Made by a program: the position numbers and the translations under genes. A stretch of 63,313 nucleotides of DNA, the filler included, from Dirinaria sp. TL-2023a (lineage: Eukaryota): NCBI GenBank assembly GCA_051941275.1. It is 37 parts of 37 records of this genome, joined end to end, with 100 filler letters (N's around TTAATTAATTAA, not from the genome) between each part and the next. Parts side by side here need not be neighbours in the genome. Positions count along the whole stretch, not along the records: positions 1 to 1,651 come from JAVEBF010002600.1; 36 more parts are not named here. One strand, given 5' to 3'. Each line of letters begins with the position of its first letter. Positions within the stretch are counted from its first letter, which is position 1. Below the pieces are notes generated by a model. That model did not search any database. It was not told the DNA's origin and saw nothing but the letters and a program-made list of their open reading frames with translations. Shown here one piece after another: positions 1 through 63,109 of the stretch.

Positions 1-1237
1 CTAATTAAACTCACTGCGAAAAACACTCGATGAATTTGAGAAAAAGAGAAACAGAGAACATTTGAACAGTTGAAAAAGACATGTTTGAGAGAATCGACAC
101 TCAGAATGTTTGACGAGATGAAATCAATACGAATCGAAACTAACGCATCAGATTTGACTATAAAGATTTGTCTGTGTCAGAAAAAACAGAGCAAATAACA
201 CTCAGTGACATATTTCTCGAGAAAATTATCATCAGCTGAATAGAACTACGACATACATAACAAGAAATTGCTAGTTATCGTAGCATTCTTGAAAATCTAA
301 ACAGTATATGCGAAAGAAGCATCTGAACTTAAGATAATAACGAATCATAAGAACTTGCTGTATTTTACGACAATAAAACAGTTAAATCGAAGACAAATCA
401 AATAATCGAAATTTTTTGAATAGTACAAATTTACTATACGATATACGTCAGAAAAGAATAATGACAGAGCGAACGCACTAAATCGACGAAACGATTATAT
501 GATATATAAAACGAAATTCAATCATAACATATTAAAAATGAATCAGAATGAATCATTATCGACAAACAAGACTCAGAAATTGAATGCGACACTGCGCATA
601 TTTCGAGACGATCAAGAGAAATACTTTATACAGAGAAAAAAGTTACAAATATCGACAAACAAGATTGAAAATTGCATTAAGAAATATCACGATGAGTCAT
701 TGCAGAGACATTCGAGAATATTCAAAATATTACGACTTTTACGATAAGATTGTCAGTTTTTACATATGAGACAAAAAATCGAGACATACATTAAACGATG
801 CTTTAGCTGTCAGAAGAACAAGCATGCGACTCATGCTAAATACGAAGAATTGTAGTATTAAAAATCATCAACGACATCATGAAATGAAGTCACGATCAAT
901 TTTATCATCAAATTATCGAGATCAAAGAATTCAGCAACGAGAAAAATTTATGACTTCATATTAATAGTTGTAAATAAATTAACGAAATACTCACATATTG
1001 TACTTTTTAAAAAGATTTACTTCGCGAAACAGTTAAATTACATTATATTGAATCGACTTATTCGATATCACGATATATCAAGAGAAATAACAAGCGATCG
1101 AGACAAATTATTTCGTTCAAACTATTGAAAAACTTTTATATTATTATTGAGAACGAAACTTCGACTGTCAACAGCATATTATTCGAAGATCGATGAACAA
1201 GCAAAGAGAACGAATTAGAGTCTAAAACAGTATTTAC
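1..1237 (+). mobile_element. Degenerate Ty3/Gypsy pol fragment (RT connection, RNase H, integrase HHCC and core)
   Basis: Frame 1 reads IRIETNASD, YFSRKLSSAE*NYDIHNKKLLVI, TNHKNLLYF, zinc-binding H..H..CFSC, ITSDRDKLF and LSTAYYSKIDEQAKRTN*SLKQYL; many stops at ancestral W/Q codons. Confidence 0.93.
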
Positions 1238-1511
1238 TGTCAGGGCCTGCACAGCGCTCAATGGCATATGGGTACAAATAGACTAGAACACTAACTATGA
1301 AGAAGAAAAGGAAAGGAAATCTATCTACAGGAAAACTCAAATAGGGGCCCGGAGCAATATCGGTCCGAGGACGCTAGGCCTGATAAGGCAAAACCAAACC
1401 ACCTCTAACAAAACATCTGGTATAGGCCAAACCACATACCAAGGACCTTCCTTCAGGATCCAGGGAGTCATGTGACCTGACCTAAGGTACTACAGGTCTA
1501 GGTTCATGACA
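1238..1511. mobile_element. Solo LTR (274 bp, TGTCA...TGACA), family A
   Basis: TG..CA ends with a 5-bp terminal inverted repeat; interrupts the integrase frame; a homologous copy lies in opposite orientation at 62905-63109. Confidence 0.85.
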
Positions 1512-1651
1512 GATCTATTTGAAATGTGCGACGACATACGACTTCGAATCAGTGTTACAGAATTTGTCGACGATATCAACATACTAATTTATAGCGAGTC
1601 GACGAAACGCAATTGTCATCTGTTGAAGAAGATATATGACAAATGCAAACA
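1512..1651 (+). mobile_element. Degenerate non-LTR (Tad1-like LINE) reverse transcriptase fragment
   Basis: EFVDDINILIYSESTKRNCHLLKKIYDKC resembles the fungal LINE RT motif GFVDDxNILxYGxSTExNCxxL. Confidence 0.8.
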
Positions 1652-1751: not shown

Positions 1752-1832
1752 GTCTCCAACCCTCTGCTTGCTTGTCGTATAACCATCTGCCGTCTGAGGA
1801 TGAATCCGCTGGATGCCAGTATCTGGAGGAAG

Positions 1833-3310
1833 CTAACTCGAGGGTCCCGAAGAAGGACTAATTGTGCATGCAGTCTTTACCAGCCTTAAAAGAGGATTAG
1901 GGTTAAGCTCCATTTCATAGCGCGAGAGTCTGCGTTTTCTTCCGAAGGCAGGTGCCCGTAACAATAGAAGCTTTAAAATTAGAAGATGTATCAGCTTCTC
2001 ATGACCATATTCGGATGCAAGCTGCAATGCTCTGCTCAAATCTTCCGCTTTCGATGCCGCGCCGTGATCCAAGAGAAGTTGTACTATCTTTTCATTGCCT
2101 TCTCGTGATGCGAGCTGTAGTGCAGTCTTATGATCTGTATTTGCTGCATTGACATTCGCACCGTGATCTAAAAGAAGTTGCACGATCTTTTCAAAGCCTT
2201 TTTCTGATGCAGCATGTAGTGCAGTGTCATCAAATTTTGATATTGCATTGACATCTGCACTGTGATCTAAGAGAAGTTGCACGATCTTTTCAAAGCCTTT
2301 TTCTGATGCAACATGTAGTGCAGTGTCATCATATTTTGATATTGCATTGACATTCGCACCGTGATCTAAGAGAAGTTGCACGATCTTTTCAAAACCTCTT
2401 AGTGATGCAACATGTAGTGCAGTGTCATCATATTTTGATATTGCATTGACATTCGCACCGTGATTTAAGAGAAGTTGCACGATCTTTTCAAAACCTCTTA
2501 CTGATGCAACATGTAGTGCAGTGCCACCAAATTTTGATATTGCATTGACATTCGCACCGTGATCTAAGAGAAGTTGCACGATCTTTTCATGACCTTCTTC
2601 CACCGCCATATGTAGGAATCTACCGTTCGTTGGATCTAACAAACGTCTCGTCTTCCAATCTATGGAAGAAGAAATGCATTCTTCCAGAAAGCGTGATAAT
2701 CCAAAAGCGCACGCTACCGAGAGATAGGTCTCTGGTTTAGAAATTGCGGCTCCTATTCTATTCTCTACTTTTTTGCTTACATGGAAATCCAAATCTTGGA
2801 GAGTCCATGAGCTGGTAGCCCAAGTTGGCCTATATTTTGGATTTGACTGAATATCGGAAATCCATCCTAAATATGGCGCTGGGGCTTTGGAAAAATTATC
2901 CGTGAATGACGATAATTTTTCCTTTAGCTTCTGGTAATTATCGTCGTCGACATACTTATAATGTAGTGGCCAAAACAATTCTGCATAAGCCTTGAAGACA
3001 TTGTTCGCTTGATTCATACTCCTTAATGCCGCGTCGGATGAGTGCCTAGTCACATATACGTCTAGGCACCTTTCCGCAGCAAAGGTATGCTGCTCCAGAA
3101 GTGAGTACTCGGATTTCTGTAAGAGGTACTCTCGAACGGATTGATGCGCAAACCGGAAAACCTGTCTTTCTGCATCAAGTACCACGAGATTACGGCAGAG
3201 TCGAAGTATATCGTTCTCGGAAGATGACAGCATTTCGCTGTCACTGTCGTCGTCAGACTCCAGAGACGCCCCAGGATCAGATATGTGTACGGCGGCGATT
3301 AGCTCCCGCA
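1833..3310 (-). CDS. Last exon of an ankyrin-repeat protein, probably a NACHT-ANK fungal NLR (5' part missing)
   Basis: Post-NACHT winged-helix motif LCRNLVVLD..FRFAHQSVREYL followed by about 7 ankyrin repeats; exon is preceded by a CTAACAG branch/acceptor at 3311-3317. Confidence 0.85.
2047..2589 (-). repeat. Tandem 99-nt ankyrin-coding repeats with high internal nucleotide identity
   Basis: GCATTGACAT anchor recurs at 2146, 2245, 2344, 2443 and 2542 (period 99); a more diverged unit lies at 2047-2145. Confidence 0.95.
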
Positions 3311-3497
3311 CTGTTAGTAAACGTTGAGAACATAACAGCCACTTCAGTGTCTTATTTGCTACGTCGCGCGCATAAGTCTCCGCGTCGTCAATCTGCGNNN
3401 NNNNNNNNNNNNNNNNNNNNNNNNNNNNNNNNNNNNNNNNNTTAATTAATTAANNNNNNNNNNNNNNNNNNNNNNNNNNNNNNNNNNNNNNNNNNNN

Positions 3498-17353: not shown

Positions 17354-18325
17354 GTAGAGTTGAAAACGAAAGATTGAATCGAAGATTGAACGAAAATGAA
17401 TGTGAAAAGTTGATCTTTTTTATTCGAGTCTCAGTTTTGATCGATGATCACTAATGTTTTTGATGAAAGCATTGACACGAACTGTGATCGAGACTGTTGA
17501 TTTTTGTGATTTTTCTTCGATGTTCGAGATCGAGAGCGATTTGACACGTTCTGTGAGAGATTTATTGAAGAGTCTTCGCTAGATATGTTGTAATATCGTT
17601 AGCAGATAAGAGACTTGAATTGAGATAGAAAACAAAAACGTAATAAAGAAAATGAGTGAGAAAGAAAAATGTGTAAAGAAAAAGAGACGTTCGAGTTTTT
17701 GTAATCAAAGAGAAGTATTGTTTCATAATAATGTTATTTCATTTGTTGTAACACGATTGATTCGAATAATACGACTGCGAGAACTTTAACGATTGTGTTT
17801 GAAAATGTCGTTAAGAATCGCGTTGTCTGATGCAAACGTCGACATGTCGTTCGCTGTTTTGATTAAATCGCGAGAGTGTTAAAATTTTTTGAAGCAGACT
17901 CACTATTTGTTCGTGTACTGAGTATCTCGAATCGCTTTTAGAGCAGACTCATTATGTTCAACTTTTTACGTTTTCGACGATAGACGAGTGAAGTCGTTTT
18001 TTCGTTGTATTATATTCAGAACTGCTTTTAAAATAGACTCACTGTTCGTTCGTTTACTCTATATCTCGAATTTTCTTTTTCGTGTGATCATCTTTTTTTA
18101 AAGTTTCTCAAACTCTTTCGTGTGACGATGTTTATTCGAAAATAGCTCTTTCGAAACTGATTTTTTCGAAGCTGTCGACTTACGCAGTAACGACATGAAG
18201 AAAAAATTTAAGCTCATTTGCAAGAGTTTACTGTGATATCTTAGCAATCTAACTCGAGAGATTGACGAAAAAATTTTCTTTAGAGTACAGTTCGTCGACT
18301 GATTCTGAAGAGATAGCTAGTATTA
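17354..18325. mobile_element. Heavily mutated repeat relic of unidentified family
   Basis: AT-rich, CC/GG essentially absent, TCGA/CG abundant; one minus frame reads as protein punctuated by TGA/TAA/TAG. Confidence 0.55.
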
Positions 18326-18487
18326 TGTCAGGAATCTAGACTGCATAAATAGATATGATATTGACGAGAATACTAGCTATGCAGAACTAAAATACATGAG
18401 GGCGAGATTTAAGTAGAAATCTCGTCCGCTAGCGCTCCCGAGGTTCCTCCGAGGGAGCTCCAACACTATCGCACTAAATCCGTGACA
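18326..18487. mobile_element. Probable short solo LTR (162 bp, TGTCA...TGACA)
   Basis: Terminal inverted pentamers and an abrupt return of CC/GG within depleted flanks; no TSD seen. Confidence 0.5.
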
Positions 18488-19081
18488 GCGAACAAAATCG
18501 CATGACAGTCAGACACGTGTTATTAACGTGTTTTACGTGAAAACAGAAAAAACTAAAGATGCAACGAAGAACGAATAATATTACAGATGTGAGAAAACTG
18601 CTCGATAGCGTCACTGATATCACAGCGACGATACGCATGATTTTATTCACTAATTTACTCAGTCAGTTTTAGACGACTGCTCGTTCTTCAGATTTTTAGA
18701 CTCAGAGTTCTCGCATGAAGGATTTTCTAGTATTATGAATAGAGAAAACTGCACGTAACAAGAAAAGAGTCGACGCAGCGCTGACGCGCCGCCGATATAA
18801 GTATATGAATCTCGCATAGACCTCTGATGGGTGTTGAATCGAGTAAGAAAAAAAAAATCTAAATAAATTTTGCGAGAAAATAAAAATTATTTTATTGCTC
18901 GTCAATTATGCGACATGTTTGCGATATATTAATTTTTGAGTCATAAATATTTGTAAAATTTTTTGATAAAATTAATATATCNNNNNNNNNNNNNNNNNNN
19001 NNNNNNNNNNNNNNNNNNNNNNNNNTTAATTAATTAANNNNNNNNNNNNNNNNNNNNNNNNNNNNNNNNNNNNNNNNNNNN

Positions 19082-20709
19082 ATCATTTATTCTCAGAAAC
19101 AGCACAGAAACATGCGTCGCGCAAAAAAATCGTGTCGAACGAGAATGAATTTAGAGAAACGTCGCAGAATATGCTCGTCTCATCGCGTTATAAGATATTG
19201 AAGCGCGATGAACTCAAACTCAAGAGCAAATCGAAGTCATTTCTCTTTTTATCAACTAGCAATCGAGCTACGCAAGACTCGATCAATACGACGAATCGTC
19301 TCGAGTCGTTAGAAGAGAAGATATCGAATATAACAATAATTGACGTCGCAAGCTTTGATTTTCTGACGCAACGAGCTCGCAAAAAGAAGAACGACACGCA
19401 ATTTTACTCTCTTACTATCGATCAGATTGACAATGAATTGAAGAGACGAGCATCTATAAAGACTACAAATGCTTCGAAGAATCTCGAGAAAGCTATCATA
19501 TTCACATTATCGATGAATGAGATAATAAAACGCATTTCTGAAGAATTTAGAGATCTCAAGAAGATGTTCAACTCTATCAAGACAAAGAAATTGTCATCTC
19601 ATCGATCTTACGATCATAAGATAAAGTTGAAGAGCAATGCAAGTCAATTGTCACGCAGTCGCGTGTACTCGATATCGAATATCAAACTTCAAAAGCTTAA
19701 GAAATATCTTGACGAGAATCTTCGAAAGGAATACATAACGTCTAGCTATGCTTCATATGCATCGTCGATATTATTCGCAGTCAAAGCAAATAAAAATCTA
19801 AAAGTGTGTGTTGATTATAGAAAACTGAACGTCATTACTCGACGCAATCGATATTCTATACCTCTTATCGAGAAAACCCTTGCTCGAGTTGTAGAAGGCA
19901 AATATCTCACAAAATTAGATGTTATTGCGGCCTTCAATAAGCTCCGCATGCATTCTAATAGTGAAGAGTTAACTATCTTTATTTGCTCATTAGGCGCATA
20001 CAAATATAGAGTGTTACCATTCGAATTAACTAACGGGTCGATCAACTATCAACACTATATGAACGACATTCTATGGGAGTTTCTCAACGATTTTGTCTCT
20101 GTTTACTTAGATGACATTCTCATCTATAGTAAGATCAGAAAGAAGCACGTGCAACATGTACGAGCAGTACTTAAGAAGCTTGATGATACAGGTCTTCAAA
20201 TCGATATTGAGAAGTGTCAATTCTTCGTGCAAGAAACTACCTTTCTGAGGGTAATTCTATCGACTGACGACCTTCGCATGAACTCTGTCAAGATGCAAGT
20301 AGTGACTGATTGAAAGACTCTCACACGTCTCAAAGAGCTACAGGCCTTCATAAGATTTTGTAATTTCTATCGGCGATTCATTAAGGGATTCTCGCGAGTG
20401 GTGAAGTCGATGATGAAGTTGATCAAAAAGAAAGTCTTCTTTTATTGAGATGAGATCTGCGAGCAGGCATTCAAGAAACTAAAATTCTGCATTACTTCTG
20501 CTTCAATACTCAGACATTTCGATCGCACACGCAAGACGATACTAGAGATCGACTCTTTCGATCATGTAAACGCAGAGATATTATCGCAGTACGATGACGA
20601 TGAAGTATTGCACTCGATAGTCTTCTACTCAAAGAATTTTCTATCGACTGAGTGCAATTATGAGATATATGACAAGAAACTACTCGTCATCGTCAAGTGT
20701 CTAGAACAC
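19082..20709 (+). mobile_element. Ty3/Gypsy pol fragment (RT and RNase H), mutated
   Basis: HRSYDHKIKL, VCVDYRKLN, TKLDVIAAFNKLRM, YRVLPFELTNG, VYLDDILIYS, then after a TGA at 20311 [32 protein letters not shown]. Confidence 0.95.
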
Positions 20710-21081: not shown

Positions 21082-21539
21082 TGTCAAAGACCCAACCTTG
21101 GTTAGATAGGTTTCCCAATGGTAAAAGTCCCGGCAGCGCCAAAAGATTAACTAAACTAAGTCAAGGGACTTGGTGTCTATCTTACTACTTAGGTGTTTCA
21201 GGGTCGTAACACTATTCGAGTCTCTCTCTGAGCTTCGTCCCGAAGCTCAGCACTCAGGGTGTGGGTAGGAGGTTCGTCTTAAGTGGAAAGGTTAAGTAGT
21301 CGCCCCGAGCTTAGACAAGCTCTCAGTCACAAGTTCTCGCCGAAACAACTTTTCAAACGTTCGGGCGGAATCGAACTCAGAATTTTGCGATCGGGTTGAT
21401 TTGGTTTAATGTCAAAAACTCAGCCTTGGTTAGATAGATTTCTCAATGATAAAAGTCCCGGCAGCGTCAAAAGACTAACTAAATCAAGTCAAGGGACTTG
21501 ATGTCTATCTTATTACTTAGGTGTTCCAGGGTCGTAACA
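21082..21539 (-). mobile_element. Complete non-autonomous miniature LTR element (TRIM-like): two 130-bp LTRs, 198-bp non-coding interior, TSD CACAT
   Basis: Direct repeats 21082-21211 and 21410-21539, each TG..CA; CACAT at 21077-21081 and 21540-21544; purine-rich tract next to the minus-strand 3' LTR. Confidence 0.88.
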
Positions 21540-22021
21540 CACATTCATAAATACCTGCTTTCTATACTTAGATTTCTTTTCTTTCTTCATGCTTTGTGTA
21601 TTTAGTTGATAGCACCTGCATAGATCATATCTTCTGCACCGGTTCTGACACGAATCAGAAAAATCGTAGAACTCATAGATTATCGTCTGTAGATTTTTCA
21701 ATGATTTTAAATTAGACAAATTTGATATTTTTCATATGCGTTTTGTAATTTGAGATCGTTGTTGAATTCTTTTATCATTGTTGTTTTCATCTCGTCGTCG
21801 TCATGTCGAACAAAAATGAACGCGCGAGAGAAATTTTTCAAAAAATTTTTTATCGTCGTCGATGACGATAATATTTTTGACAAAAGTCTCAAATTGTATT
21901 AGAATCGATGCAGAGCAAGTTAATGCAGATGTAGTTAACTAAGATATTATTATTAAGGAAGATGTAAGATCGTATGCGTCGGTTACTCGTCGGCGCAGTA
22001 CTTATGCGAAAGACGTGACAG

Positions 22022-29434: not shown

Positions 29435-31055
29435 GTGTTGGATTGCGGTGTCCGGGGAGGGAGCCTTTTCATATTTGGGCGGTTTTTTCTTGGACTTGGG
29501 TTTCTGGGTTAAGTGCGCTGGGTCTGCGAAGAAGGGGTCGTCGAAGCCGAGGTCTTTCTGTTTCTCCAAGCCTGCGTCTTCTTCTAGCGACCCCGTATGC
29601 TCGGCTGCTGCTTCTTCTGCGTTGTTGCTATTTAGTTCTCGGACGCTTTTCATCTTCTCTTTTCGCCGCTGTTTGCGCTCTTTTTCTTTCCGGATGTACT
29701 TCTCTACAGTCGTCTCTTCGTGTTCGGGCTCCGGCCCGTTTTCAAACACGCCGCCTTTACTGCCCGATAGCCCTGATGTGAATGTGATCTGTAAATCTCC
29801 AACTGGTGCGCTGGTTTCATCTTTTGCCTTCTTAGGGACAGGCTCGGAGGGGAGGCCAAGAAGAGCGCGCATTCGCTGGCGCTCGGCTTCTTTCTTCGGG
29901 AGCTGAGGTGCTGCGGCAGAACCCGATTCCACCCCTGTGTTTTCCGTCGCTGGGTCATTCGCGCCCGTTGCATCGACGACCACTGGCTCTGGCACATCCT
30001 CCTCCTCCTCACTATCGCTGCCTAGATAAGCTTTGAGATCATTCTCGTCGACCTCAGCACGGCTTCCCCCAAATGCTCGCTTCTGCACCTCTTTCCTCGC
30101 GACATCGTCCGCATCCCATGTCAGCCGGACCTTACTGTGTTGCAGTGCGTCCGTGACAAATTCGTTCGGCCGGTAACCATCCGGGATTCTTTCACATTCG
30201 TCCCTAGGCTTGTCACTGCTGAAATCCGTATCGTCAGGTATGAACCGTAAGTCGAAGAAATTGGCGGTAGTCAGATACTCGGTGCCATCTATGGCGTTGT
30301 ATATAGCCTCTGCGACCTCGGCAGAAGAACAGATCAGGACAGCGAAGAAATATCGTAGACGAGAAAGCTGATAGCGGCGCAGGCTTGCCGAGCTGAAGTC
30401 CTGGCCCTGGTCCTCTTTTAACATGGACTTTTTGATCTTTTCTTCTTGCTCTTCGTCATCCAATTCTGCCTCTTCCAGATCGTCTTCTGCGCTTGATTCA
30501 TCATTCACCGGTGCACCACTTGGTCGTTTCGAGCCGAACATGTCTTTCGAAGGCCCTTCCATCTCTTCTCTCTCCATACGCTCTTTTCCGTATTCGCTGG
30601 GGTATATAGAAACCTTCAATATTCTCCCTCCGCCCGGTGCAAAGCTGGAAAATACAGCCAAAAGATCTGCTGAGCGGATATTGTCCCAATCTAGATTGAC
30701 AATCGCAATTCTCGATGTGACTTCGCCCATCGGCACCTCCTCGCCATGCTGCTCGTCCAACATGCCAAAGATTTCCTCCTCTTCCTCGCTTGAAGCCTCA
30801 TCTTCGCTCTCTTCTTCAGAGCTACTGTCCTTCTCCTCGTCTTCCGCATCCAGCCTTTCCAGTTCCTTCTCCACGTCCTCGTCATCTATCAGCCCTTCTT
30901 CATCCTCGTCTGCAATCCTGTAATACCTCTCCAGCTCTTTCCTCCCGGCGTCCTTGGGCAACTTTCTACCATAACGGTCTACCTTCGCTTTGCTAGAGAA
31001 GTCATCGCTGCGCAGCATGTGCGCGAAGCGCGAATCGAGGCGAACATGGGTATTT
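29435..31055 (-). CDS. ESF1: Pre-rRNA-processing protein Esf1, truncated at both ends
   Basis: KVDRYGRK, TSRIAIVNLDWDNIRSADL, VSIYPSEYGKERMEREEMEGP, LRRYQLSRLRYFFAV, ANFFDLRFIPD, ALQHSKVRLTWD. Confidence 0.96.
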
Positions 31056-31155: not shown

Positions 31156-32771
31156 GCTTTCATTGATCGAATCTTCGCGCAACAAAATAATTTAAAAATG
31201 ATCTCTCTGAAATTTCTCATAACTCTCGAAATTTTTGATGATTCTCAAACTGTATTCGAACTCATCACTCATTATGTTTATAAACTTTTTGATATCGGAC
31301 ACTCTCATCGATTCACGAAATTCTATGTCACAGAATTGTCAAATTGATCTGTGATTCTAGATTTTCTCTGATTCAAAAAAAATCAAATTCGATTGAATTT
31401 CAAAAAACTGACTCTCGAAATTCTCGTTGATAAAACATCTGAAAAATCTGCAAAATCGACTGTCAATGCGTCGACGAAGTATGTTTTTAACTCGCTTATC
31501 TTGACCTCTAATGAGGATTCATTTATGAACGTTAACTTCATCGACGTCGTCGTTTTCTCACGACTAGCTCGAAAAAAGAATCGTATTTTAGACGTCTTCA
31601 GTTTAAAGATTTTAGAGAAGATTTTAAACATCAAATCTAAATCTGACTCAATTACGAAACTGTCAAAGAAATTTCATCACTTGTTGTCGACATTTTTTTA
31701 TCAAGAGACTGATGTGAGGACGTTGTGCAACCGAGTGAAGAGCACACGTGGAGCGGAGGGCCACCGGTAGAGCTACGTAGTAGAATTGCCACCGTAACAG
31801 AAGATTAAATCGTGCAGAGAAAAGCTGGGGGATGGCCGATACATAAGGTCGGCCAGCGCCAAGGCATCGGCCCGGGTCGGGGCCGGTATCGGGGGGTCTC
31901 AGGGGTCTTCAAGAACCCTGAAGACCGGACCCTAAATCTAAAATAGGGGTCCTCAGGTACGGCTTTGGTCTACAAGTCTACTGGTCACGTGATATCGCAA
32001 CTATACTATGGTGGCATTACAACTGATCAGTTTCTCGCGCATCGTTTTTACGATCATGCTATTGAACTTTTAGATGATAAAGAGTCAGACTTCGGTTCTC
32101 TATACGACATGTCAAAAAACGAACTACTGATCTTACAGAAATATTTAAAGAAAATCCTCGTCAAAGATTTCATCAGAGTTAGTTTATTCGAGTATTTCTC
32201 ACTCGTGCTTTTTATAAAAAAGTCTGATGAATATTTTCGATTTTGCGTCGACTATCGCAAACTCAATGCTATCACAAGAAAAAATCGTTACCCATTGTCT
32301 CTAGTTCAAGAAATCTTAGATCGTCTATGCAAGACAAAGTTTTTCATTAAAATCGATATCATAGCTGCATTCAATAAACTTCGAATATCTCTTGATTACG
32401 AGAAATACACTGCGTTCCGCACTCGATTTGAATTTTTCGAGTATCTATTTATGTTTTTCGAGTTATGCAATGCTTCTTCATCATGACAAAATTTTATCAA
32501 TGATATTTTAAAAGAACATCTAGACGATTTCTGCATCGTCTATCTAGATGATATACTGATGTACAGCAATACTCGAGAAGAGCACATTAAGCACGTCACA
32601 TGAGTACTAGAACAGTTGAAGAAAGCTGAGATTCAAGCGGACATCGAGAAATGTGAATTCTACGTTCAAGAGGTTAAGTATTTAGATCTTATCATCATCA
32701 TCAAAGGCATCAAAATAGACTCGGACAAGATCGACGCTATTGTTAACTGAGAATCACCTCAGATCTTAAAG
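31156..32771 (+). mobile_element. Ty3/Gypsy pol fragment (protease region and RT), mutated and interrupted by a solo LTR
   Basis: [77 protein letters not shown] at Trp positions. Confidence 0.93.
31713..32021. mobile_element. Solo LTR (309 bp) with 5-bp TSD ACTGA, nested in Gypsy pol
   Basis: TG..CA ends; ACTGA at 31708-31712 and 32022-32026; removing it restores QETDQFLAHRFYDHAIEL. Confidence 0.92.
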
Positions 32772-55271: not shown

Positions 55272-56685
55272 AAAGTGGAGTGATTTATAGAAAAAATATC
55301 AAGACTAAGAACGTGAGCCATGTCAAGTGAAACAGTCTTATCAGTATGAAACAGTGACTCGTTCACACCAAGAGTCAAGCCGATGTCCCAGAACAATGGC
55401 AATTCATGACAATTGCAAACCGTGAATTCGTGATTCCAAGGTGTCACAGTCTGCTATTCGATGTTCATCAGGCCCCTGTGATTAATTCCGATATGCAGAA
55501 GGGCGAGCGAAATGCCAATGACAGACATCTAGCCTCTTCTATGCACTTTCCAGGCCAACAATTAGATATTGTGGGTTACCGAGCAAAATGATCACAGAAA
55601 ATGCAACAAGCTAAAGGCTTGTTGCCGCCGGCGAAGGGATCAAGATGAGTTGTGATACCTACTGGATTTGGCTCCTTGAGAATCGTTTTGGTAATAAATG
55701 CGATGACTAAAATGGAGATAGGGAGCCTTCGCAACGGATGCGCTCGTCAGACCCGGACAGCTGACGGAGCTTGGCTCGACTTCAAAGTTGATCTATGGCC
55801 AGTAAATGGTGGCATGAAAGTCGCCGTATTCGAAGATTTACCTGGAGAACAATTAATGTCTCGGCTATCTGTAGCATGTGTACTCCATGAACCTGCGAAA
55901 GAATTGTATTGGAAGCTAATGTTCCATGAGCTTACACTGATCCAATCCAAAGTGGCCTTTCATTTTTTATAACGGTTGTGCGGATCAATCATCGAGTACG
56001 CCTCAAGTTGTACAGTTTCCATCGACTGCGACCATTAGGAGATTACCTTACCTTAGAGCTTGCAAGCGGCCGGAGGTACTGAGCAGGGTCTCAACTTTAG
56101 GTTCCGTTTGTCCTCGTTCGGGGCACTACTAGTGCCTAAGGTAGAATAGCTTGCTTACGGTACGATGCGATGCCTTTGGAGTTTGGTGTCACCTTTGCAG
56201 CCTTTGCTGCAACTTAAGGTAGGTATCCTTATGGGAAACTCGGGTCTGCTAAATTATTTTCGCAGCTTGCGAAATACTAGTTAATACTAGTGACCAACGG
56301 CTTTCATGAACTCCTTTAATTGGTCTCGCTTTGCTGCCACCATGCGGGACGAGTGGCAAGAGATCCTGGGTGACGAATACGCGTGCAGAGATCTGCACGA
56401 TTAGTGCAGAATGCAATCAAGATTTCGAGATGGCAATAATAATAATAATGAAGCGAGCGAAGCTGGTTTCCATTAGTGCGCCTGGACACGTAGCGGCCAA
56501 AGCCGGTTTTAGGGACGTTTGCAATGCTCCCTTTAAAAAGCAGAGTCTGCCCAGGGGATGATTGACTGGTTCAGTCTCCNNNNNNNNNNNNNNNNNNNNN
56601 NNNNNNNNNNNNNNNNNNNNNNNTTAATTAATTAANNNNNNNNNNNNNNNNNNNNNNNNNNNNNNNNNNNNNNNNNNNNTATCAA

Positions 56686-56784
56686 TGTCGCAGCCTTGAC
56701 AACAAAGACCGTTACTCAAAGACCAACTAAATCAAGCTAGCGACTTGATTGCCTATCTTGCTACTTATGTCCAGGGTCGTAACA
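56686..56784. mobile_element. LTR relic related to the TRIM LTRs at 21082/21410
   Basis: Shares AAAGAC.AACTAAATCAAG, CTATCTT..TACTTA and the terminus TCCAGGGTCGTAACA. Confidence 0.7.
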
Positions 56785-57339
56785 CATATCTCCATTCCAT
56801 TCTGAGCGAAACAGGAGACAGTCTCTTGATGCATTCTACGAGTCGATATAGCTGAAGAAATTCTCGGTTTCGGAGCTTTGTCAGCTTATTATCTAACGGT
56901 CCAAGCACAAGGATAGTTATCAACACTCTCAGTCAAAACCATCGAAATTGATAAGAGGCAGTGAGGACCTTCGGAATGTCACAGCCAGTAGCTGTCTCTT
57001 CATGACCTATCGGAAAAACTCCACAAGCCAAGGTTTCGAGGGTAACTTTTGGCCGATCAGGCTGCGGTTCCTCGGGTTCAGCTATTCTTAATCTTCTAGT
57101 AAGATGATTCGAAATATAGTTCCTTTTTGGAGCCCATGCTTTTTCGTAAAAGAGGTGTGTTTATCTCATTCAAGTTCGGCTTCTGTAGACTTGATTTCGA
57201 GAATCATGTAACATTTCCATGTACATCCAAAAAAGCTACTTAGCTTAGACCTCAAAAAGAAGCTTCCCTACAAGATTCAGAAGGATGCTCAGCGTTTATA
57301 CTCAGAAATCTTCGTGAGAAGCTGCTACTTCAAGCAGCT

Positions 57340-57999
57340 ATGAAAGCACTTTCAATTCACGACTTTCAGTTCGCTGCTGATTCCTCGTCAGACATTCTCT
57401 TTAGTTCAGACATATTTGAAGGTGATGTAACAAGAAATAATGGACGAATTGAAAGCGAAACACGAAGTCTGTTGTCCTCTGTGTCAAGAAATCAAAGACG
57501 AGAAATGTTCGACAAGCACGAGACTACGTCTTCGAGTGCGAAGATAAGCACGAAGCATCAGCATGTCTCACTTCAAAATTCTCAAACGAAGAGGCGATTG
57601 TCGTCGATACATCCGTTATTCCGTCGGCGGCCAATTTCAGGCAGAGCTGATGACGTTGCTGCTCTGAACGATCGAATAACGAGAAACGGCGAAACGACAT
57701 CTACTTACGAGCAACTATCTCATCGACTTCAAATATCAAAACGTCATCATTCTCGTTCTTCAAAGGAGCGTATTGAAGAGCTCACACGAACGAATGACTA
57801 TCTGCTGCAAGAGCTAGCTTATCACAAAGAAACTCAAGCAGCCGACTTGAAGTTTTATAAAACAGTTACGGGTTTTTATGCGAAACTGAAGAATGCGCTA
57901 AGGGAAAGATCCCGAAGACGAGCAGAGGCAGAGTCTGCTTTATTAAGATATTGGGGCATTAATTTTGATGATGGGAATGTCGAGGACATAGTGTTTTAA
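57340..57999 (+). CDS. Hypothetical protein (219 aa) with C-terminal coiled coil
   Basis: Intact single-exon ORF; heptad pattern ERIEELTRTNDYLLQELAYHKE. Confidence 0.5.
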   Translation: MKALSIHDFQFAADSSSDILFSSDIFEGDVTRNNGRIESETRSLLSSVSRNQRREMFDKHETTSSSAKISTKHQHVSLQNSQTKRRLSSIHPLFRRRPISGRADDVAALNDRITRNGETTSTYEQLSHRLQISKRHHSRSSKERIEELTRTNDYLLQELAYHKETQAADLKFYKTVTGFYAKLKNALRERSRRRAEAESALLRYWGINFDDGNVEDIVF

Positions 58000-58686
58000 A
58001 AGGGAGCCGCTAAAGTCACTCTTCTCTCTGCGGACGTTACACCACTCCTCTGAAACGACACAACGCCTGCCTAGGAATTTAATGTTTCTCCGCGGATATT
58101 TCAGATAGTCTCGAAGCCGTTTTCGAAAGCATATTTGAGCATGAGAAAGCTTTACCCAAATGCATGTGTTGTTGTCGATTTGCGATTGTGGAATGCATAA
58201 TATTAGGATTGAGGCTAATTGCAAAATCTTGACGTTCGTAGCAATATGACTGACTGATGAAGATANNNNNNNNNNNNNNNNNNNNNNNNNNNNNNNNNNN
58301 NNNNNNNNNTTAATTAATTAANNNNNNNNNNNNNNNNNNNNNNNNNNNNNNNNNNNNNNNNNNNNATCTTAGTTGGTCTGTGAAGTTTACATTATCTCAA
58401 TATTCATAGATATTCGCTTTAGCATCTCATCTGTCGCTTCTATTACTCAAGATCCGCACGACATTGAAGTCCTCATTCGCTGCGAATCTTTAGACTTTCA
58501 AAGTTCATACTTCTTCAGCGACTGATCATTCGAAGCGGTTAAACATATGCAGAGATGAAACTATACTAGCGAACAGTTATAAAATTCCTTATCGCGGTTC
58601 CGAATGAAGCCGTCATGCATTTGTTCTTCTGTCTCATCTCAACAGCTGACGAAGCTAAGTCAAGTACGAGCTGAATTTTTGATTCA

Positions 58687-59948
58687 TTATCTCTTGCTAT
58701 CTTCGTCTCTTTTTTTCTTGCTCGATCTTATCTCTTCGATGAACGAAGTAACAGACGTCGATGAGATCGTACTAGAGGAACGTGTCTGCTTTCAATGTTG
58801 CGAAAAGAAGAATAGTGCTTTAAGAGCGATGTTAATTGTCGTTCTTCGAGCCTCAAGCTCGTGACTGATAATGTTCTTGACGATGTTGTTGCATGCTCGA
58901 ATATCTTTAGGAGTCACAGATGAGTAAGACTCTAGAAACGACATGTAGTAGTGACGATCGACTTCGAAATATCAATGAAGATAGAATATGATCTCTTTAT
59001 GAGACATGATAATCGTGAAGACGATTGTATTCGTTAGTGATGAACTATCATAGATATCAGCTTCTCGAAGAAGTCATAACATAGCATTCACAGAATGAGA
59101 ATCGCTGTCTGCAGTCTGATTCTCGGCCACGTAGATTGTCTTTTCAACAGCTTCGAACTTCATCTCAATCATGAGGAAGAGAAACGTGTTATCTCTTGTC
59201 GATTGAGCATAGAGTCGCATTACTGAATGAGTGATGACGTTGAATTGAGCGTACGATCAGTCTGATTTTTGATTGATGACATATTCAAAATGAGTGTCAG
59301 ATTTGAGTGTAGAGATATCGTAGTGATATTCTGAGTTGTTTGATAATGCGACGATACTTCATGAGCTGTTCTCTTCTTCCGCAATGTCAGAACGTTCGAA
59401 AAAGAACATGTCTGTTCTGATGAGCTTCGCTGTTGGGCCTTCAGTGCTATCGACGAGCTTCTTCATCGTGTTTATCACTTTAGACACAGTTTCATTCTTC
59501 AACTGAGAAGACTCTCGTTGCTTGAGTATTTGTGTATTTGCAAACGTTCTCAGCTCTTCTGACATCTGCCTCCTCGAGTAGTTCAAAGTGATGTAATTAT
59601 TATAGAGCGTGCCTCGATACAAAGGGTGTGATGTATCAGACCTGTCACTCTGAGAGACGTCTGAGCTGAAGTTTACATTCTCTTCATATTGTGATATTTG
59701 TTGTGACATTTGCTTGATCGTTGCAAGTGACGGAGATGTGCGCTTGACTTTGTCGACGTCAACGGTAGCTGAACAAGTCAATGAGCGATCGCTCGAGAGA
59801 CTGATTGAGCTAAATTCTGAATTGAAGACTGCAGAGATTCAAGCGTCAACTAGCGAGTCAGTCGAAAGCTGTGAGCGACAATGTTTGCTTTTAGACGTGC
59901 AAGTAGATCACGATGAAGCACTGTCTGAGCGAGTAATTTGAAGATGCT
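58687..59948 (-). pseudogene. Hypermutated DUF7924-like (PD-(D/E)xK nuclease-fold) gene, 5'-truncated
   Basis: One continuous frame with KSDTHFEY, FLFLMIEMKFEAVEKTIYVAENQTADSDSHSVNA, i.e. KPDxxFGY / FPFLxIExK / GGTxYxAENQxAGSG after CC>TC and GG>GA; five in-frame TGA between 59361 and the TAA at 58687. Confidence 0.7.
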
Positions 59949-61731: not shown

Positions 61732-62410
61732 TCGTGTATCAGTACGTCTGCGCGTTTCTGACGCAGAGTGATCGTTTTGAACACATCTTTGACTCAATAA
61801 TCGCTCGATTTAAGCGTTTTTCTGACAGTTTTCGAGTCGACGCGAAAAATTATCATGTTTTTGAATCTTCGAATTCTCAATATATTTTTGCGCGTCGACA
61901 GCGTGTTGATGCTGTTGAGTTTTTGTGTCAGTGCGATTATCTCTGTCACATTCATTTTTTATACTTTTTTCGCTTTCGCGTCTTCTTTGATTCAGATCAC
62001 AATCTTCAGTTCTCTGCTCAGCTGACGTTTCGACGATGTAGCAGTAACGTTGACGCGTGTTGTTCTCTATGCGCTCGCGATGCTCATGATCGTTATTTTC
62101 GCTCAATTGTTTTTTTTCTGCAAGTGTTTCTTCTTTTGTACAACTTTTTTACATCTGCTGATCATTTTCTCAAGTCGCGCAATCATCGCGTCGTTATTAT
62201 TTTGTATGATCGAGATAATTGCGATTTCGCTCTGACGCGTCTTTGCGCGAATTATGTCGAACAGATTGTGCAGTTCAGTCATCGACATCATTTCGCTGAC
62301 ATTGATTTTCTTAAACTCATAGAGTCTCACAATCTTATTTATCTCATTTAATATTTCGCTCGATTCTGATATTCTTCTCTGCGAAGACGTCTCGATAATA
62401 TCTCGTTCAT
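61732..62410 (-). mobile_element. Degenerate LINE (Tad1-like) ORF1/gag-like fragment
   Basis: Coiled region, then RELKIVI*IKED..EII..IIFRVDSKTVRKTLKSSDY*VKDVFKTITLRQKRADVLIH, similar to the W..F..A.LR...GVLVHG segment of fungal LINE ORF1; CC/GG depleted. Confidence 0.6.
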
Positions 62411-62904
62411 TTGTCGACGTCGCGTCGACCGCGTTTATCTCATCGCGACAATCAGAGTGAGACGCGAACCTTATCGCCAGTGATAATCCTCAGTAGCTCT
62501 TCGAATTCAAAGGTAGTTTTAATTGATAATATGATCGAGTTCCTCAATGTCCATAAAAGTTTCCTTCATTAGATATATTGAATCAATAATTTCTTGTTAT
62601 AATATAAAATAAAAGATAGAGTCAAAGACGATGATGTCGAATGAAATCGTCTCAAAATAACAATAATATAACATAAATAAACAAATTGTTAGAAGAATTA
62701 CGCGTTTGCAAAATACACAGTTTTATTATTAAAGTAGATGTAAAAAGACAAAGATAAGACGCTCTCATTGATTAAATAATATGACTCATGATCGTATAAC
62801 TAGTTTTAATAAAACGAACTTCGAGTGTCTAATAACGTAATCAATTAATTGTGATGTTTTAGAGTCGTTGTTAGGACCGGTGTAGAGCAAGTCAATGCGG
62901 ATAT

Positions 62905-63109
62905 TGTCATGAACCTAGATCTGGAGCACCTTAGGTCAGGTCACATGATCAGGTCACATGATCAGGCCCAGCGTCCCCTCGGACCGATATTGCTCCGGGT
63001 CCCTATTTGAGTCTTCCTGTAGATAGATTTTCTTTCCTTTTCTTCTTCATAGTTAGTGTCCTAGTCTACTAGCACTCATATGCCATTGAGCGCTGTGCAG
63101 ACTCTGACA
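62905..63109. mobile_element. Solo LTR (205 bp), internally deleted copy of family A
   Basis: Reverse complement of 1238-1511 at both ends; TGTCA...TGACA. Confidence 0.85.

Follow-up and report, generated by a model that had tools for sequence, protein, structure and literature searches.

CC/GG-Free Relics of Repeated Elements and a Probable CpC-Preferring, RIP-Like Mutation Process in an Assembly Most Likely Derived From a Lichen-Forming Ascomycete

Introduction

How can more than a kilobase of DNA come to lack every CC and GG dinucleotide while CG, CA, and TG remain common? The question is raised by the first 1237 bases of a 63,313-base stretch of assembled DNA (hereafter the window, meaning the whole stretch at its full length), which hold the relic of a Ty3/Gypsy retroelement, and by further stretches with the same deficit elsewhere in the window. 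The window consists of 37 contigs sorted by length, the longest of 1651 bp and the shortest of 1582 bp, with an identical spacer of the form N44-TTAATTAATTAA-N44 at each of the 36 joins, the first of which lies at 1652-1751; since the contigs are unlinked, the adjacency of regions within it is artificial. The evidence reviewed here is drawn from the window, from public protein collections, and from one metagenome-contig scan. The affected stretches represent the remains of repeated elements (Ty3/Gypsy elements, a copy of a DUF7924 gene, and unclassified sequences) that have undergone C-to-T mutation on both strands, and the agent is probably a homology-guided genome defence directed at repeats, akin to repeat-induced point mutation (RIP), with a preference for cytosines that are followed by another cytosine (CpC).

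Loss of CC and GG in the Window

In region 1-1237 the deficit is absolute (CC 0, GG 0), and the run free of both dinucleotides extends over 1-1243. CG is retained at 55 sites (observed-to-expected ratio, o/e, 1.96), CA at 91 (1.13), and TG at 51 (1.03); TC (66 sites, o/e 1.34) and GA (131, o/e 1.61) are raised, and TA (104, o/e 0.73) is not. Mononucleotide shuffles of the region (n = 2000) contained on average 55.9 CC plus GG (standard deviation 6.6) and never fewer than 33, and at the window-wide density of 0.0926 per position the probability of encountering none over 1237 positions is about 1e-52. Glycine, proline, and tryptophan are absent from all six reading frames. The original prediction, made from the sequence by eye, had described both the missing CC and GG beside common CG, CA, and TG and a Gypsy frame devoid of these three residues, and the counts and the six-frame check agree with it. 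It had also assigned the same signature to five other regions, which holds for four of them: 17354-18325 and 61732-62400 each contain 0 CC and 0 GG, 19082-19860 contains 0 CC and 1 GG, and 31156-31712 contains 1 CC and 2 GG. The fifth, 58687-59948, is only partly depleted (8 CC, 10 GG; o/e 0.15-0.20, a depletion of about 80-85%). Additional depleted stretches, beyond that earlier list, lie at 1512-1651, 21642-21957, 32157-32639, 57284-57593, and 62564-62874.

When the five saturated regions are pooled (3817 bp, both strands), one CC/GG site is left, the trinucleotides TCG, GCG, and ACG stand at o/e 3.43, 2.21, and 1.70, and TA-containing trinucleotides are low. TC plus GA reaches o/e 1.4-1.9 in affected stretches, and the GC content of the affected relics is about 0.30-0.40. 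Because the C and G fractions of the saturated stretches have each fallen to 0.17 as the CG o/e has doubled to about 2, the number of CpG sites has been essentially preserved.

Direction and Sequence Context of the Mutations

The direction of change can be read from codons that are conserved in intact homologues. For the Gypsy elements, tblastn was used to align the window's three Gypsy contigs with 79 intact polyproteins of normal glycine and proline content, and only positions covered by 10 or more homologues, with 70% or more of these in agreement, were compared. Conserved glycine is kept at 2 of 21 such positions, its codons now being mostly GAA/GAG/GAT/GAC, AGA/AGG, and AAA; proline is kept at 4 of 34 (21 are TCN serine and 3 are CTC leucine) and tryptophan at 0 of 8 (6 TGA, 1 TAA). 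Histidine (12/14), glutamine (6/7), cysteine (6/6), and leucine (43/49) are retained, as is arginine at 10 of 15 positions, where several of the survivors are CGN codons.

The contig at 58366-59948, which carries the DUF7924 gene copy, was compared with 40 intact homologues, the closest being 74% identical, and gave a cleaner picture. Glycine is kept at 2 of 22 conserved positions and proline at 3 of 32 (23 have become TCN serine), and each of the 7 tryptophans is now TGA. Every conserved tyrosine, phenylalanine, isoleucine, lysine, and asparagine is kept, together with histidine (7/7), glutamine (17/18), cysteine (3/3), leucine (22/23), and methionine (7/7). All changes at conserved glycine, proline, and tryptophan in this contig are of the CpC type, and the remainder (threonine to ATC, six cases; serine to TTC, four; alanine to GTC, two) likewise affect a C that precedes a C. 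The histidine-to-tyrosine change occurs at 1 of 14 conserved positions in the Gypsy contigs and 0 of 7 in the DUF7924 contig.

On both strands it is the 5' C of a CpC that has been hit, with high specificity and near saturation (CC to TC, GG to GA), and in the affected stretches of the window CpG is kept and CpA and CpT are barely touched. These comparisons uphold the proposal that conserved motifs show proline-to-serine, glycine-to-aspartate or -glutamate, and tryptophan-to-TGA changes on both strands, and the persistence of conserved histidine, glutamine, and CGN arginine where glycine, proline, and tryptophan are lost bears out the dominant CpC preference that it named. In partly mutated regions the fraction of CC sites that survive is 0.10 for ACC, 0.08 for CCC, 0.15 for GCC, and 0.13 for TCC, against 0.40-0.53 by the same measure in gene contigs; since the 5' neighbour has almost no effect on survival, it is the 3' C that defines the target. 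The base following the CC pair has a modest effect (CCA 0.05, CCG 0.11, CCT 0.15). Region 1-1237 is an older relic and also carries some CpA-type changes, visible as TAA and TAG stops beside TGA.

Two simple accounts of the deficit were considered and rejected. Selection on transposable elements for avoidance of CC and GG does not account for the destruction of catalytic and structural glycine, proline, and tryptophan residues or for the introduction of stops, and a bisulfite-like conversion does not account for the C that remains before A, G, and T.

The Affected Elements

Affected frames were scanned against Pfam with stops read as X. The affected stretches of the window are as follows.

1..1237, plus strand: Ty3/Gypsy pol relic covering the RNase H and integrase zinc-binding region (RT_RNaseH 1.3e-20, RT_RNaseH_2 4.3e-18, Integrase_H2C2 7.5e-11).
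1512..1651, plus strand: unclassified CC/GG-free fragment with no Pfam match, whose translation includes FVDDINILIY.
17354..18325, no strand assigned: unclassified CC/GG-free repeat relic (CG o/e 2.11).
19082..19860, plus strand: Gypsy polyprotein upstream of and into the reverse transcriptase, saturated, aligned to the public protein P0274 and containing LSSHRSYDHKIKL.
19861..20709, plus strand: continuation of that Gypsy copy from the reverse transcriptase into RNase H, partly mutated (9 CC, 16 GG).
21642..21957, no strand assigned: unclassified, 316 bp free of CC and GG in a contig that is normal elsewhere.
31156..31712, plus strand: nearly saturated part of a Gypsy copy that lies upstream of the reverse transcriptase, ending at the ACTGA duplication at 31708-31712.
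32022..32771, plus strand: the same Gypsy copy continued, reverse transcriptase (RVT_1 3e-23, match on 31158-32771).
57284..57593, plus strand: partly depleted stretch (2 CC, 2 GG) within an open 251-codon frame.
58366..59948, minus strand: DUF7924 gene copy, about 90% depleted (13 CC, 13 GG; DUF7924 1.8e-10, match 58366-59946).
61732..62429, no strand assigned: unclassified CC/GG-free relic (0 CC, 0 GG; CG o/e about 2).
62564..62874, no strand assigned: AT-rich CC/GG-free stretch (GC 0.25).

The Gypsy assignment is based on the RVT_1, RT_RNaseH, and Integrase_H2C2 matches, on tblastn alignment to full polyproteins, and on a solo long terminal repeat (LTR) with a 5-bp duplication. The Gypsy frame of 1-1237 is interrupted by 13 in-frame stops (4 TGA, 5 TAA, 4 TAG), and we take FVDDINILIY in the neighbouring fragment, which has no Pfam match, to resemble reverse-transcriptase motif C. 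In the second Gypsy copy, a 409-codon frame at 19084-20310 (plus strand; RVT_1 2.3e-24) is still open, and its first ~260 residues contain no glycine, proline, or tryptophan; the site of LSSHRSYDHKIKL is one at which Gypsy elements usually carry LPPHRPYDH. The level of mutation shifts abruptly within this single element, at 19860/19861. In the third copy, 32018-32771 (754 bp tallied) retains 5 CC and 5 GG. For 17354-18325, none of the six frames has a Pfam match, and the remainder of its contig, 18326-18981, is partly depleted (10 CC, 9 GG). Those affected stretches that belong to a recognisable family are Gypsy or DUF7924 copies, their repeat status following from the family rather than from copy counts; when the 37 contigs were compared with one another by blastn, no element was present in both a mutated and an unmutated copy, the only pair being one of LTR-like sequences.

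The DUF7924 homologues in public collections (P0392-P0450) are proteins of ~509 aa, present in lichen fungi as well as in other Pezizomycotina and grouped in clusters with as many as 26 members; the family may be part of a mobile element of no assigned class. The open 251-codon frame at 57244-57996 (plus strand), of which 57284-57593 is the CC/GG-poor 5' part, matches no Pfam family and may be a lightly mutated duplicated gene or a case of the process leaking into a gene. A 205-codon frame at 61734-62348 (plus strand), rich in phenylalanine, serine, aspartate, arginine, and cysteine, is open in CC/GG-free DNA; it has no Pfam match, and it may represent the genuine coding frame of a mutated, unclassified element or be open by chance.

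Gene-Bearing Contigs and the Likely Host

Six gene-bearing contigs have CC plus GG at o/e 0.71-1.14 (ankyrin 0.71, Duc1 1.14, F-box 0.93, ESF1 0.87, DUF676 hydrolase 0.93, APP1 1.11), in keeping with the expectation that single-copy genes such as ESF1 would be spared. ESF1 itself occupies a 540-codon frame at 29435-31054 on the minus strand (Pfam RRM_ESF1, 1e-51). Its best named relatives are all Lecanoromycetes, at 56-65% identity (e.g., Stereocaulon, Letharia, Lecanora, Trapelia, and Xylographa), and its closest relatives overall are 'ena'-sourced proteins at 83% and 78%; the best named relatives of the DUF7924 copy, Toensbergia leucococca (62%) and Circinaria calcarea (58%), are also Lecanoromycetes. 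As ESF1 and, independently, the DUF7924 copy point in this direction, the host is most likely a lichen-forming ascomycete in or near the Lecanoromycetes.

The Same Signature in Public Protein Collections

A library search with the Gypsy frame of the window yielded 150 representatives, 9 of which contain neither glycine nor proline. A search with P0138 (986 aa) added 119 further proteins, drawn from the sources 'ena', 'ncbi', 'jgi', and 'lgn', of which 25 lack both residues, 78 have a combined glycine and proline content below 2%, and 27 are normal. Among the controls, proteins without either residue numbered 0 of 119 ESF1 homologues and 0 of 59 DUF7924 homologues. The Gly/Pro-free open reading frames (ORFs; P0138 and others among P0272-P0390) reach 1706 residues and have tryptophan at the usual positions and in normal number. 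They are likely to be hypermutated Gypsy relics that appear open because the gene caller read TGA as tryptophan, a reading supported by two metagenome loci treated below (L028 and L029), in which the tryptophan positions of the pol frame are TGA and none is TGG.

Eighteen Gly/Pro-free relatives were compared with P0274, the least-mutated member, with the proviso that protein-level rates include ordinary divergence and that long ORFs are a biased sample of copies. Glycine is kept in 0 of 698 cells (aspartate 246, glutamate 166, asparagine 135, lysine 76, serine 41, arginine 23) and proline in 2 of 580 (serine 311, phenylalanine 157, leucine 84); histidine-to-tyrosine changes are found in 20 of 427 cells and cysteine-to-tyrosine changes in 4 of 255. 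A 1131-aa family from NCBI and JGI, with nearly identical members, has lost 558 of 671 prolines, keeps 424 of 427 glutamines, and shows histidine-to-tyrosine, leucine-to-phenylalanine, and cysteine-to-tyrosine changes in 5/347, 7/1045, and 0/180 cells, respectively. Arginine has changed in 105 of 799 cells of this family (to tryptophan 31, glutamine 29, lysine 20, histidine 15, and cysteine 10), and these changes, which in 85 of the 799 cells are to tryptophan, glutamine, histidine, or cysteine, suggest some CpG mutation in its genome. The ENA families have leucine-to-phenylalanine changes at 231/1533 and 37/581, rates which indicate that CpT is a secondary target there.

Partial relatives have lost the two residues unevenly. 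P0285 has 1 glycine and 16 prolines, P0345 has 22 and 68, P0286 has 44 and 21, and P0276 has 48 and 29, compared with 76 and 101 in the intact P0291. Glycine loss and proline loss are therefore decoupled in both directions, individual events not being separable in these counts, and regional, tract-like patterns are seen in P0338 and P0326 as well as at 19860/19861 in the window.

Metagenome Loci

A scan of metagenome contigs with an alignment of the Gly/Pro-free Gypsy family located 80 loci (L001-L080). Four of them, listed here by record, are CC/GG-free, with CC plus GG at o/e 0.00-0.03 over 4.1-8.9 kb, a GC content of 0.28-0.29, and TA at 0.62-0.64.

L028: JAABUS010001970.1.
L029: JAABUU010000351.1.
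L069: JAABUT010001827.1.
L076: JAABUV010021907.1.

All four are copies of one Gypsy element, 95-99% identical across four records and as a family only ~40% identical to the rest, and the ~370-bp LTRs and ~2 kb of flanking sequence are CC/GG-free likewise. Unlike the window, where CG o/e is near 2, these loci are depleted in CpG (o/e 0.28-0.51). The residual differences between L028 and L029 comprise 231 transitions and 31 transversions, the transitions falling on 123 of 1313 remaining CpA sites, 86 of 979 CpT sites, and 20 of 92 CpG sites. The secondary context of the process differs between lineages. Within one copy, the two LTRs are separated by 29-30 transitions and 7-10 transversions, and because such pairs differ mainly by transitions, transition-biased mutation goes on after integration.

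None of the other 76 loci is depleted in CC/GG. They are distant Gypsy relatives from another organism, mostly ~30% identical and mostly from the Ga0307507_ and Ga0307515_ contig series, which serve here as a contrast, and nearly all bear a classical CpA-type signature, with CA plus TG mostly at o/e 0.4-0.7, TA at 1.3-1.6, and CC plus GG mostly at 1.15-1.5.

Long Terminal Repeats and Sharp Borders

Short LTR copies in the window escape the signature that surrounds them, and three are relevant here.

31713..32021, no strand assigned: solo LTR of 309 bp (TGTGAGG...CATTACA), with the ACTGA duplication at 31708-31712 and 32022-32026.
1238..1511, no strand assigned: unmutated LTR-like element of 274 bp (TGTCAG...CATGACA), between two CC/GG-free fragments.
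62905..63109, minus strand: second, reversed copy of the LTR-like element at 1238-1511, ~70 bp shorter and not saturated.

The solo LTR lies within the third Gypsy copy and is unmutated (17 CC and 39 GG in 31712-32017 as tallied, GC 0.55), and the DNA on both sides of it is depleted. Tallies of 1238-1520 (16 CC, 25 GG) and 62875-63107 (16 CC, 10 GG) show the same for the LTR-like pair, whose members share 90.8% identity across 152 bp; neither has a visible target-site duplication. Their 27 differences, which are too few and in part too poorly aligned to be informative, divide into 8 CpC-, 6 CpA-, and 4 CpT-type transitions, 1 unassigned transition, and 8 transversions. The unmutated window copies inside saturated relics are 205-309 bp long; the ~370-bp LTRs on the full-length L028 and L029 copies are mutated, from which it follows that LTR sequence is not in itself immune. 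Unmutated short LTRs beside mutated LTRs on full-length copies may reflect the escape of short repeats, and later insertion would account for them as well.

Comparison With Known Systems

Canonical RIP is commonly called when TpA/ApT is at least 0.89 and (CpA+TpG)/(ApC+GpT) is at most 1.03. In the affected regions TpA/ApT is 0.45-0.71, and the second, substrate index is 0.89-1.25, with only 17354-18325 passing its threshold. The composite RIP index lies between -0.17 and -0.79, similar to that of genes, and in L028 and L029 it is about -1.1 to -1.2, whereas the three classical-RIP control loci that were checked give about +1. The suspicion that standard RIP indices would under-call the signature is thus well founded.

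The affected relics share many features with RIP in Neurospora crassa and other Pezizomycotina, namely C:G-to-T:A mutation on both strands, restriction to repeats, saturation, numerous stops, sharp borders, and a target set by the 3' neighbour; they may also share the escape of short repeats and a lead taken by either strand. They depart from the canonical CpA pattern of Neurospora in that CpC is preferred, TpA is not enriched, CpA and TpG are not depleted, relic GC falls only to ~0.30-0.40, and the window retains its CpG in full. CpC is the least-favoured context in Neurospora RIP. RIP takes place before meiosis, once fertilisation has occurred, mutates a single strand along a tract in each event, and depends on RID (Masc1 family), on DIM-2 with DIM-5, or on both. 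The dinucleotide context reportedly varies between species, according to the abstract of a 2011 article by Clutterbuck in Fungal Genet Biol.

Non-canonical contexts have been described. The accessible portion of Amselem et al. (2015; PMC4352252) distinguishes CpA, CpT, and CpG signatures, with no CpC signature among them, and ties them to the Dnmt1 subfamilies present. In print, RIP-like contexts include CpT (Botrytis, Sclerotinia, Magnaporthe), CpG (Tuber, Microbotryum, rusts), and TpCpG (Pucciniomycotina). The signature described here resembles these in being a lineage-specific shift in the dinucleotide context of repeat-targeted C-to-T mutation, and differs from the CpA, CpT, and CpG signatures, as far as the accessible text describes them, in that CpC is the target and CpG is spared in the window. 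A 2025 survey of 1,239 fungal genomes describes RIP-like defences, in the portion available, as sharing a CpA preference (PMC12543289). Strong classical RIP is reported in the accessible parts of work on the lichen fungi Cladonia rangiformis and Xanthoria (PMC12542154; 10.1101/2025.11.25.690456), and by those accounts it resembles the present case in its Ty3 and LINE relics, AT-enriched compartments, sharp borders, and kind of host. In Cladonia, however, the same partial sources place the RIP GC peak near 16%, compared with 0.30-0.40 here, and the present relics would fail index-based callers. Lichen-genome papers, in the portions available, rely on GC content or on RIPper to define RIP and do not give the context (PMC12542154, 10.1101/2025.11.25.690456, PMC13535494).

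Full-text literature searches, which did not extend to supplements, found no report of CpC-dominant mutation of repeats, and the text matches to 'CpC' that were examined were RIPCAL colour legends or strain numbers. The process is best described as a CpC-specific RIP-like defence, a form apparently new to print within the literature searched, and it is also represented in several other public assemblies and in a number of element families that are unrelated to one another.

Retroelement hypermutation of the APOBEC3G type offers another comparison, since it too targets CC/GG, inactivates retroelement copies, and turns tryptophan codons into stops. The base that APOBEC3G deaminates is the 3' C of CC in minus-strand cDNA, so that the plus strand shows only GG-to-AG changes. 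In the elements described here the 5' C changes instead (GG to GA, CC to TC); both strands are affected, and mutation also occurs once an element has integrated.

Proposed Mechanism and Alternatives

The reading that we favour as probable is a RIP-like, CpC-preferring defence guided by homology, which would act repeatedly on the double-stranded DNA of the chromosome, with mainly one strand affected over a long tract in each round. The agent would be a cytosine-C5-methyltransferase-type enzyme, with RID/Masc1-like and DIM-2-like proteins as candidates, whose reading of the 3' base would favour C, and to a lesser degree T or G according to lineage, in place of the canonical A. Recognition on the 3' side is typical of DNA methyltransferase (DNMT)-type enzymes and of RIP, whereas AID/APOBEC and DddA-type deaminases read the 5' side; it is this 3'-neighbour rule that argues for a RIP-like process. 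Homology-guided action on the chromosome is suggested because LTRs are mutated within long copies and not as short solitary ones, and because LTR pairs diverge by transitions after integration. Tracts of one strand per round are suggested because glycine and proline are lost independently, in either order, and sometimes regionally. The proposal that this lineage possesses a genome-defence mutator with a dominant CpC preference is supported, as the best interpretation of direction, context, and restriction to repeats.

Put more broadly, and more tentatively, a clade of ascomycetes (lichen-forming and perhaps others) might possess an unrecognised form of repeat-induced mutation that reads 5'-CC-3' on double-stranded DNA, converts the first C with almost absolute specificity, and leaves CpG and CpA intact. 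Its agent would be a RID/DIM-2-type enzyme in which recognition of the 3' base has been re-tuned, or else a novel repeat-recruited DNA cytosine deaminase.

Several points weigh against a RIP-like defence. The canonical CpA preference and positive RIP indices are absent from the affected regions, and Pfam revealed no DNMT or deaminase domain among the ORFs of the window, which covers 63,313 bases only. Most of the classifiable affected elements are retroelements, the class of the DUF7924 family being unassigned, and the unmutated LTRs of contigs 1 and 37, without duplications, could fit an LTR-sparing process tied to reverse transcription. The relics are linked to the ESF1-bearing genome solely by co-assembly and by the best named matches to Lecanoromycetes that ESF1 and the DUF7924 copy share. 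The secondary context varies, being CpT in the ENA families and CpG in the NCBI/JGI family and the JAABU loci, and more than one process may be superimposed.

The strongest competitor, although an unlikely one, is a cytosine deaminase of single-stranded DNA or RNA (AID/APOBEC-like or another fungal type) that edits retroelement intermediates or transcribed transposable-element DNA with no sensing of homology. Every affected element that Pfam classifies as mobile is a retroelement, P0285 keeps 16 prolines but a single glycine, and the LTR-like element of contigs 1 and 37 is unmutated beside saturated internal sequence, much as the LTRs of APOBEC3G-edited retroviruses are little edited. Such an enzyme is harder to reconcile with the saturation of both strands, CC and GG both being absent from the coding strand of the Gypsy relics and both being low in the DUF7924 relic, or with partial copies such as P0286 and P0276, which together with P0285 make the strand asymmetry run in both directions. 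The target is defined by the 3' neighbour, and the 5' base has no effect (survival 0.08-0.15), unlike known AID/APOBEC or DddA enzymes. Furthermore, the full-length LTRs and ~2 kb flanks of L028 and L029 are CC/GG-free, the excess of transitions between the LTRs of one copy arose after integration, and the solo LTR at 31713-32021, with its target-site duplication, is accounted for as a later or too-short insertion.

It is less likely still that the signature comes from a different partner, in a lichen or other consortium, whose DNA was assembled together with that of the ESF1-bearing fungus; the mechanism would then be unchanged. With contigs of ~1.6 kb, no saturated relic shares a contig with a recognised host gene, as this explanation would allow; yet the DUF7924 copy and ESF1 are both closest, among named relatives, to Lecanoromycetes, and the nearest relatives of both are 'ena'-sourced.

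Non-enzymatic, damage-driven mutation at dipyrimidines, for example through ultraviolet (UV) photoproducts in compacted repeat chromatin, is very improbable. CpC, and the CpT of some relatives, are dipyrimidines, and lichens are strongly exposed to light, but TpC is enriched rather than depleted in the affected stretches, the 5' C of CC changes and not the 3' C (proline to serine 311 versus proline to leucine 84), and the changes are saturating, bounded to the base pair at LTR insertions, and absent from genes. An artefact of sequencing, base calling, chemical conversion, or assembly is the least credible explanation of all, given that the substitutions preserve reading frames, are confined to transposable-element relics with unmutated insertions inside them, and recur in ENA, NCBI, and JGI proteins and in four separate metagenome records.

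Implications

The catalytic step of RIP is still poorly understood and can be read out only through its dinucleotide preference, and a lineage with a clean CpC preference offers a natural comparison for the residues by which RID/Masc1, DIM-2-type, or other enzymes choose their targets. Surveys of RIP that depend on TpA/ApT-type indices or on very low GC content would miss the CpC form, so that statements of a shared CpA preference and of the confinement of RIP to few clades may need revising; if the interpretation is correct, the spread of RIP-like defences across fungi has been underestimated by index callers that are blind to this form. Nearly all new stops are TGA, from TGG, and the relics consequently remain open when TGA is read as tryptophan, which constitutes an annotation hazard. 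If the interpretation holds, the enzyme would also be a natural CC-specific editor of double-stranded DNA, converting C to T and sparing CpG, and hence of interest for base editing. For lichen fungi the signature would serve as a marker of genome defence and, should the process be premeiotic, indirectly as a marker of the sexual cycle.

Other Observations in the Window

The ankyrin-repeat gene at 2058-2600 (contig 1752-3397) encodes a GPI inositol-deacylase winged-helix domain, as found in fungal NLR-type proteins, and contains internal tandem repeats that are offset by 99 bp and 78-90% identical. The contig at 20810-22437 carries a direct repeat of ~131 bp (21082-21212 and 21410-21540, 90% identical), which is not CC/GG-free and has a shorter relative at 56718-56789 in contig 56680-58265.

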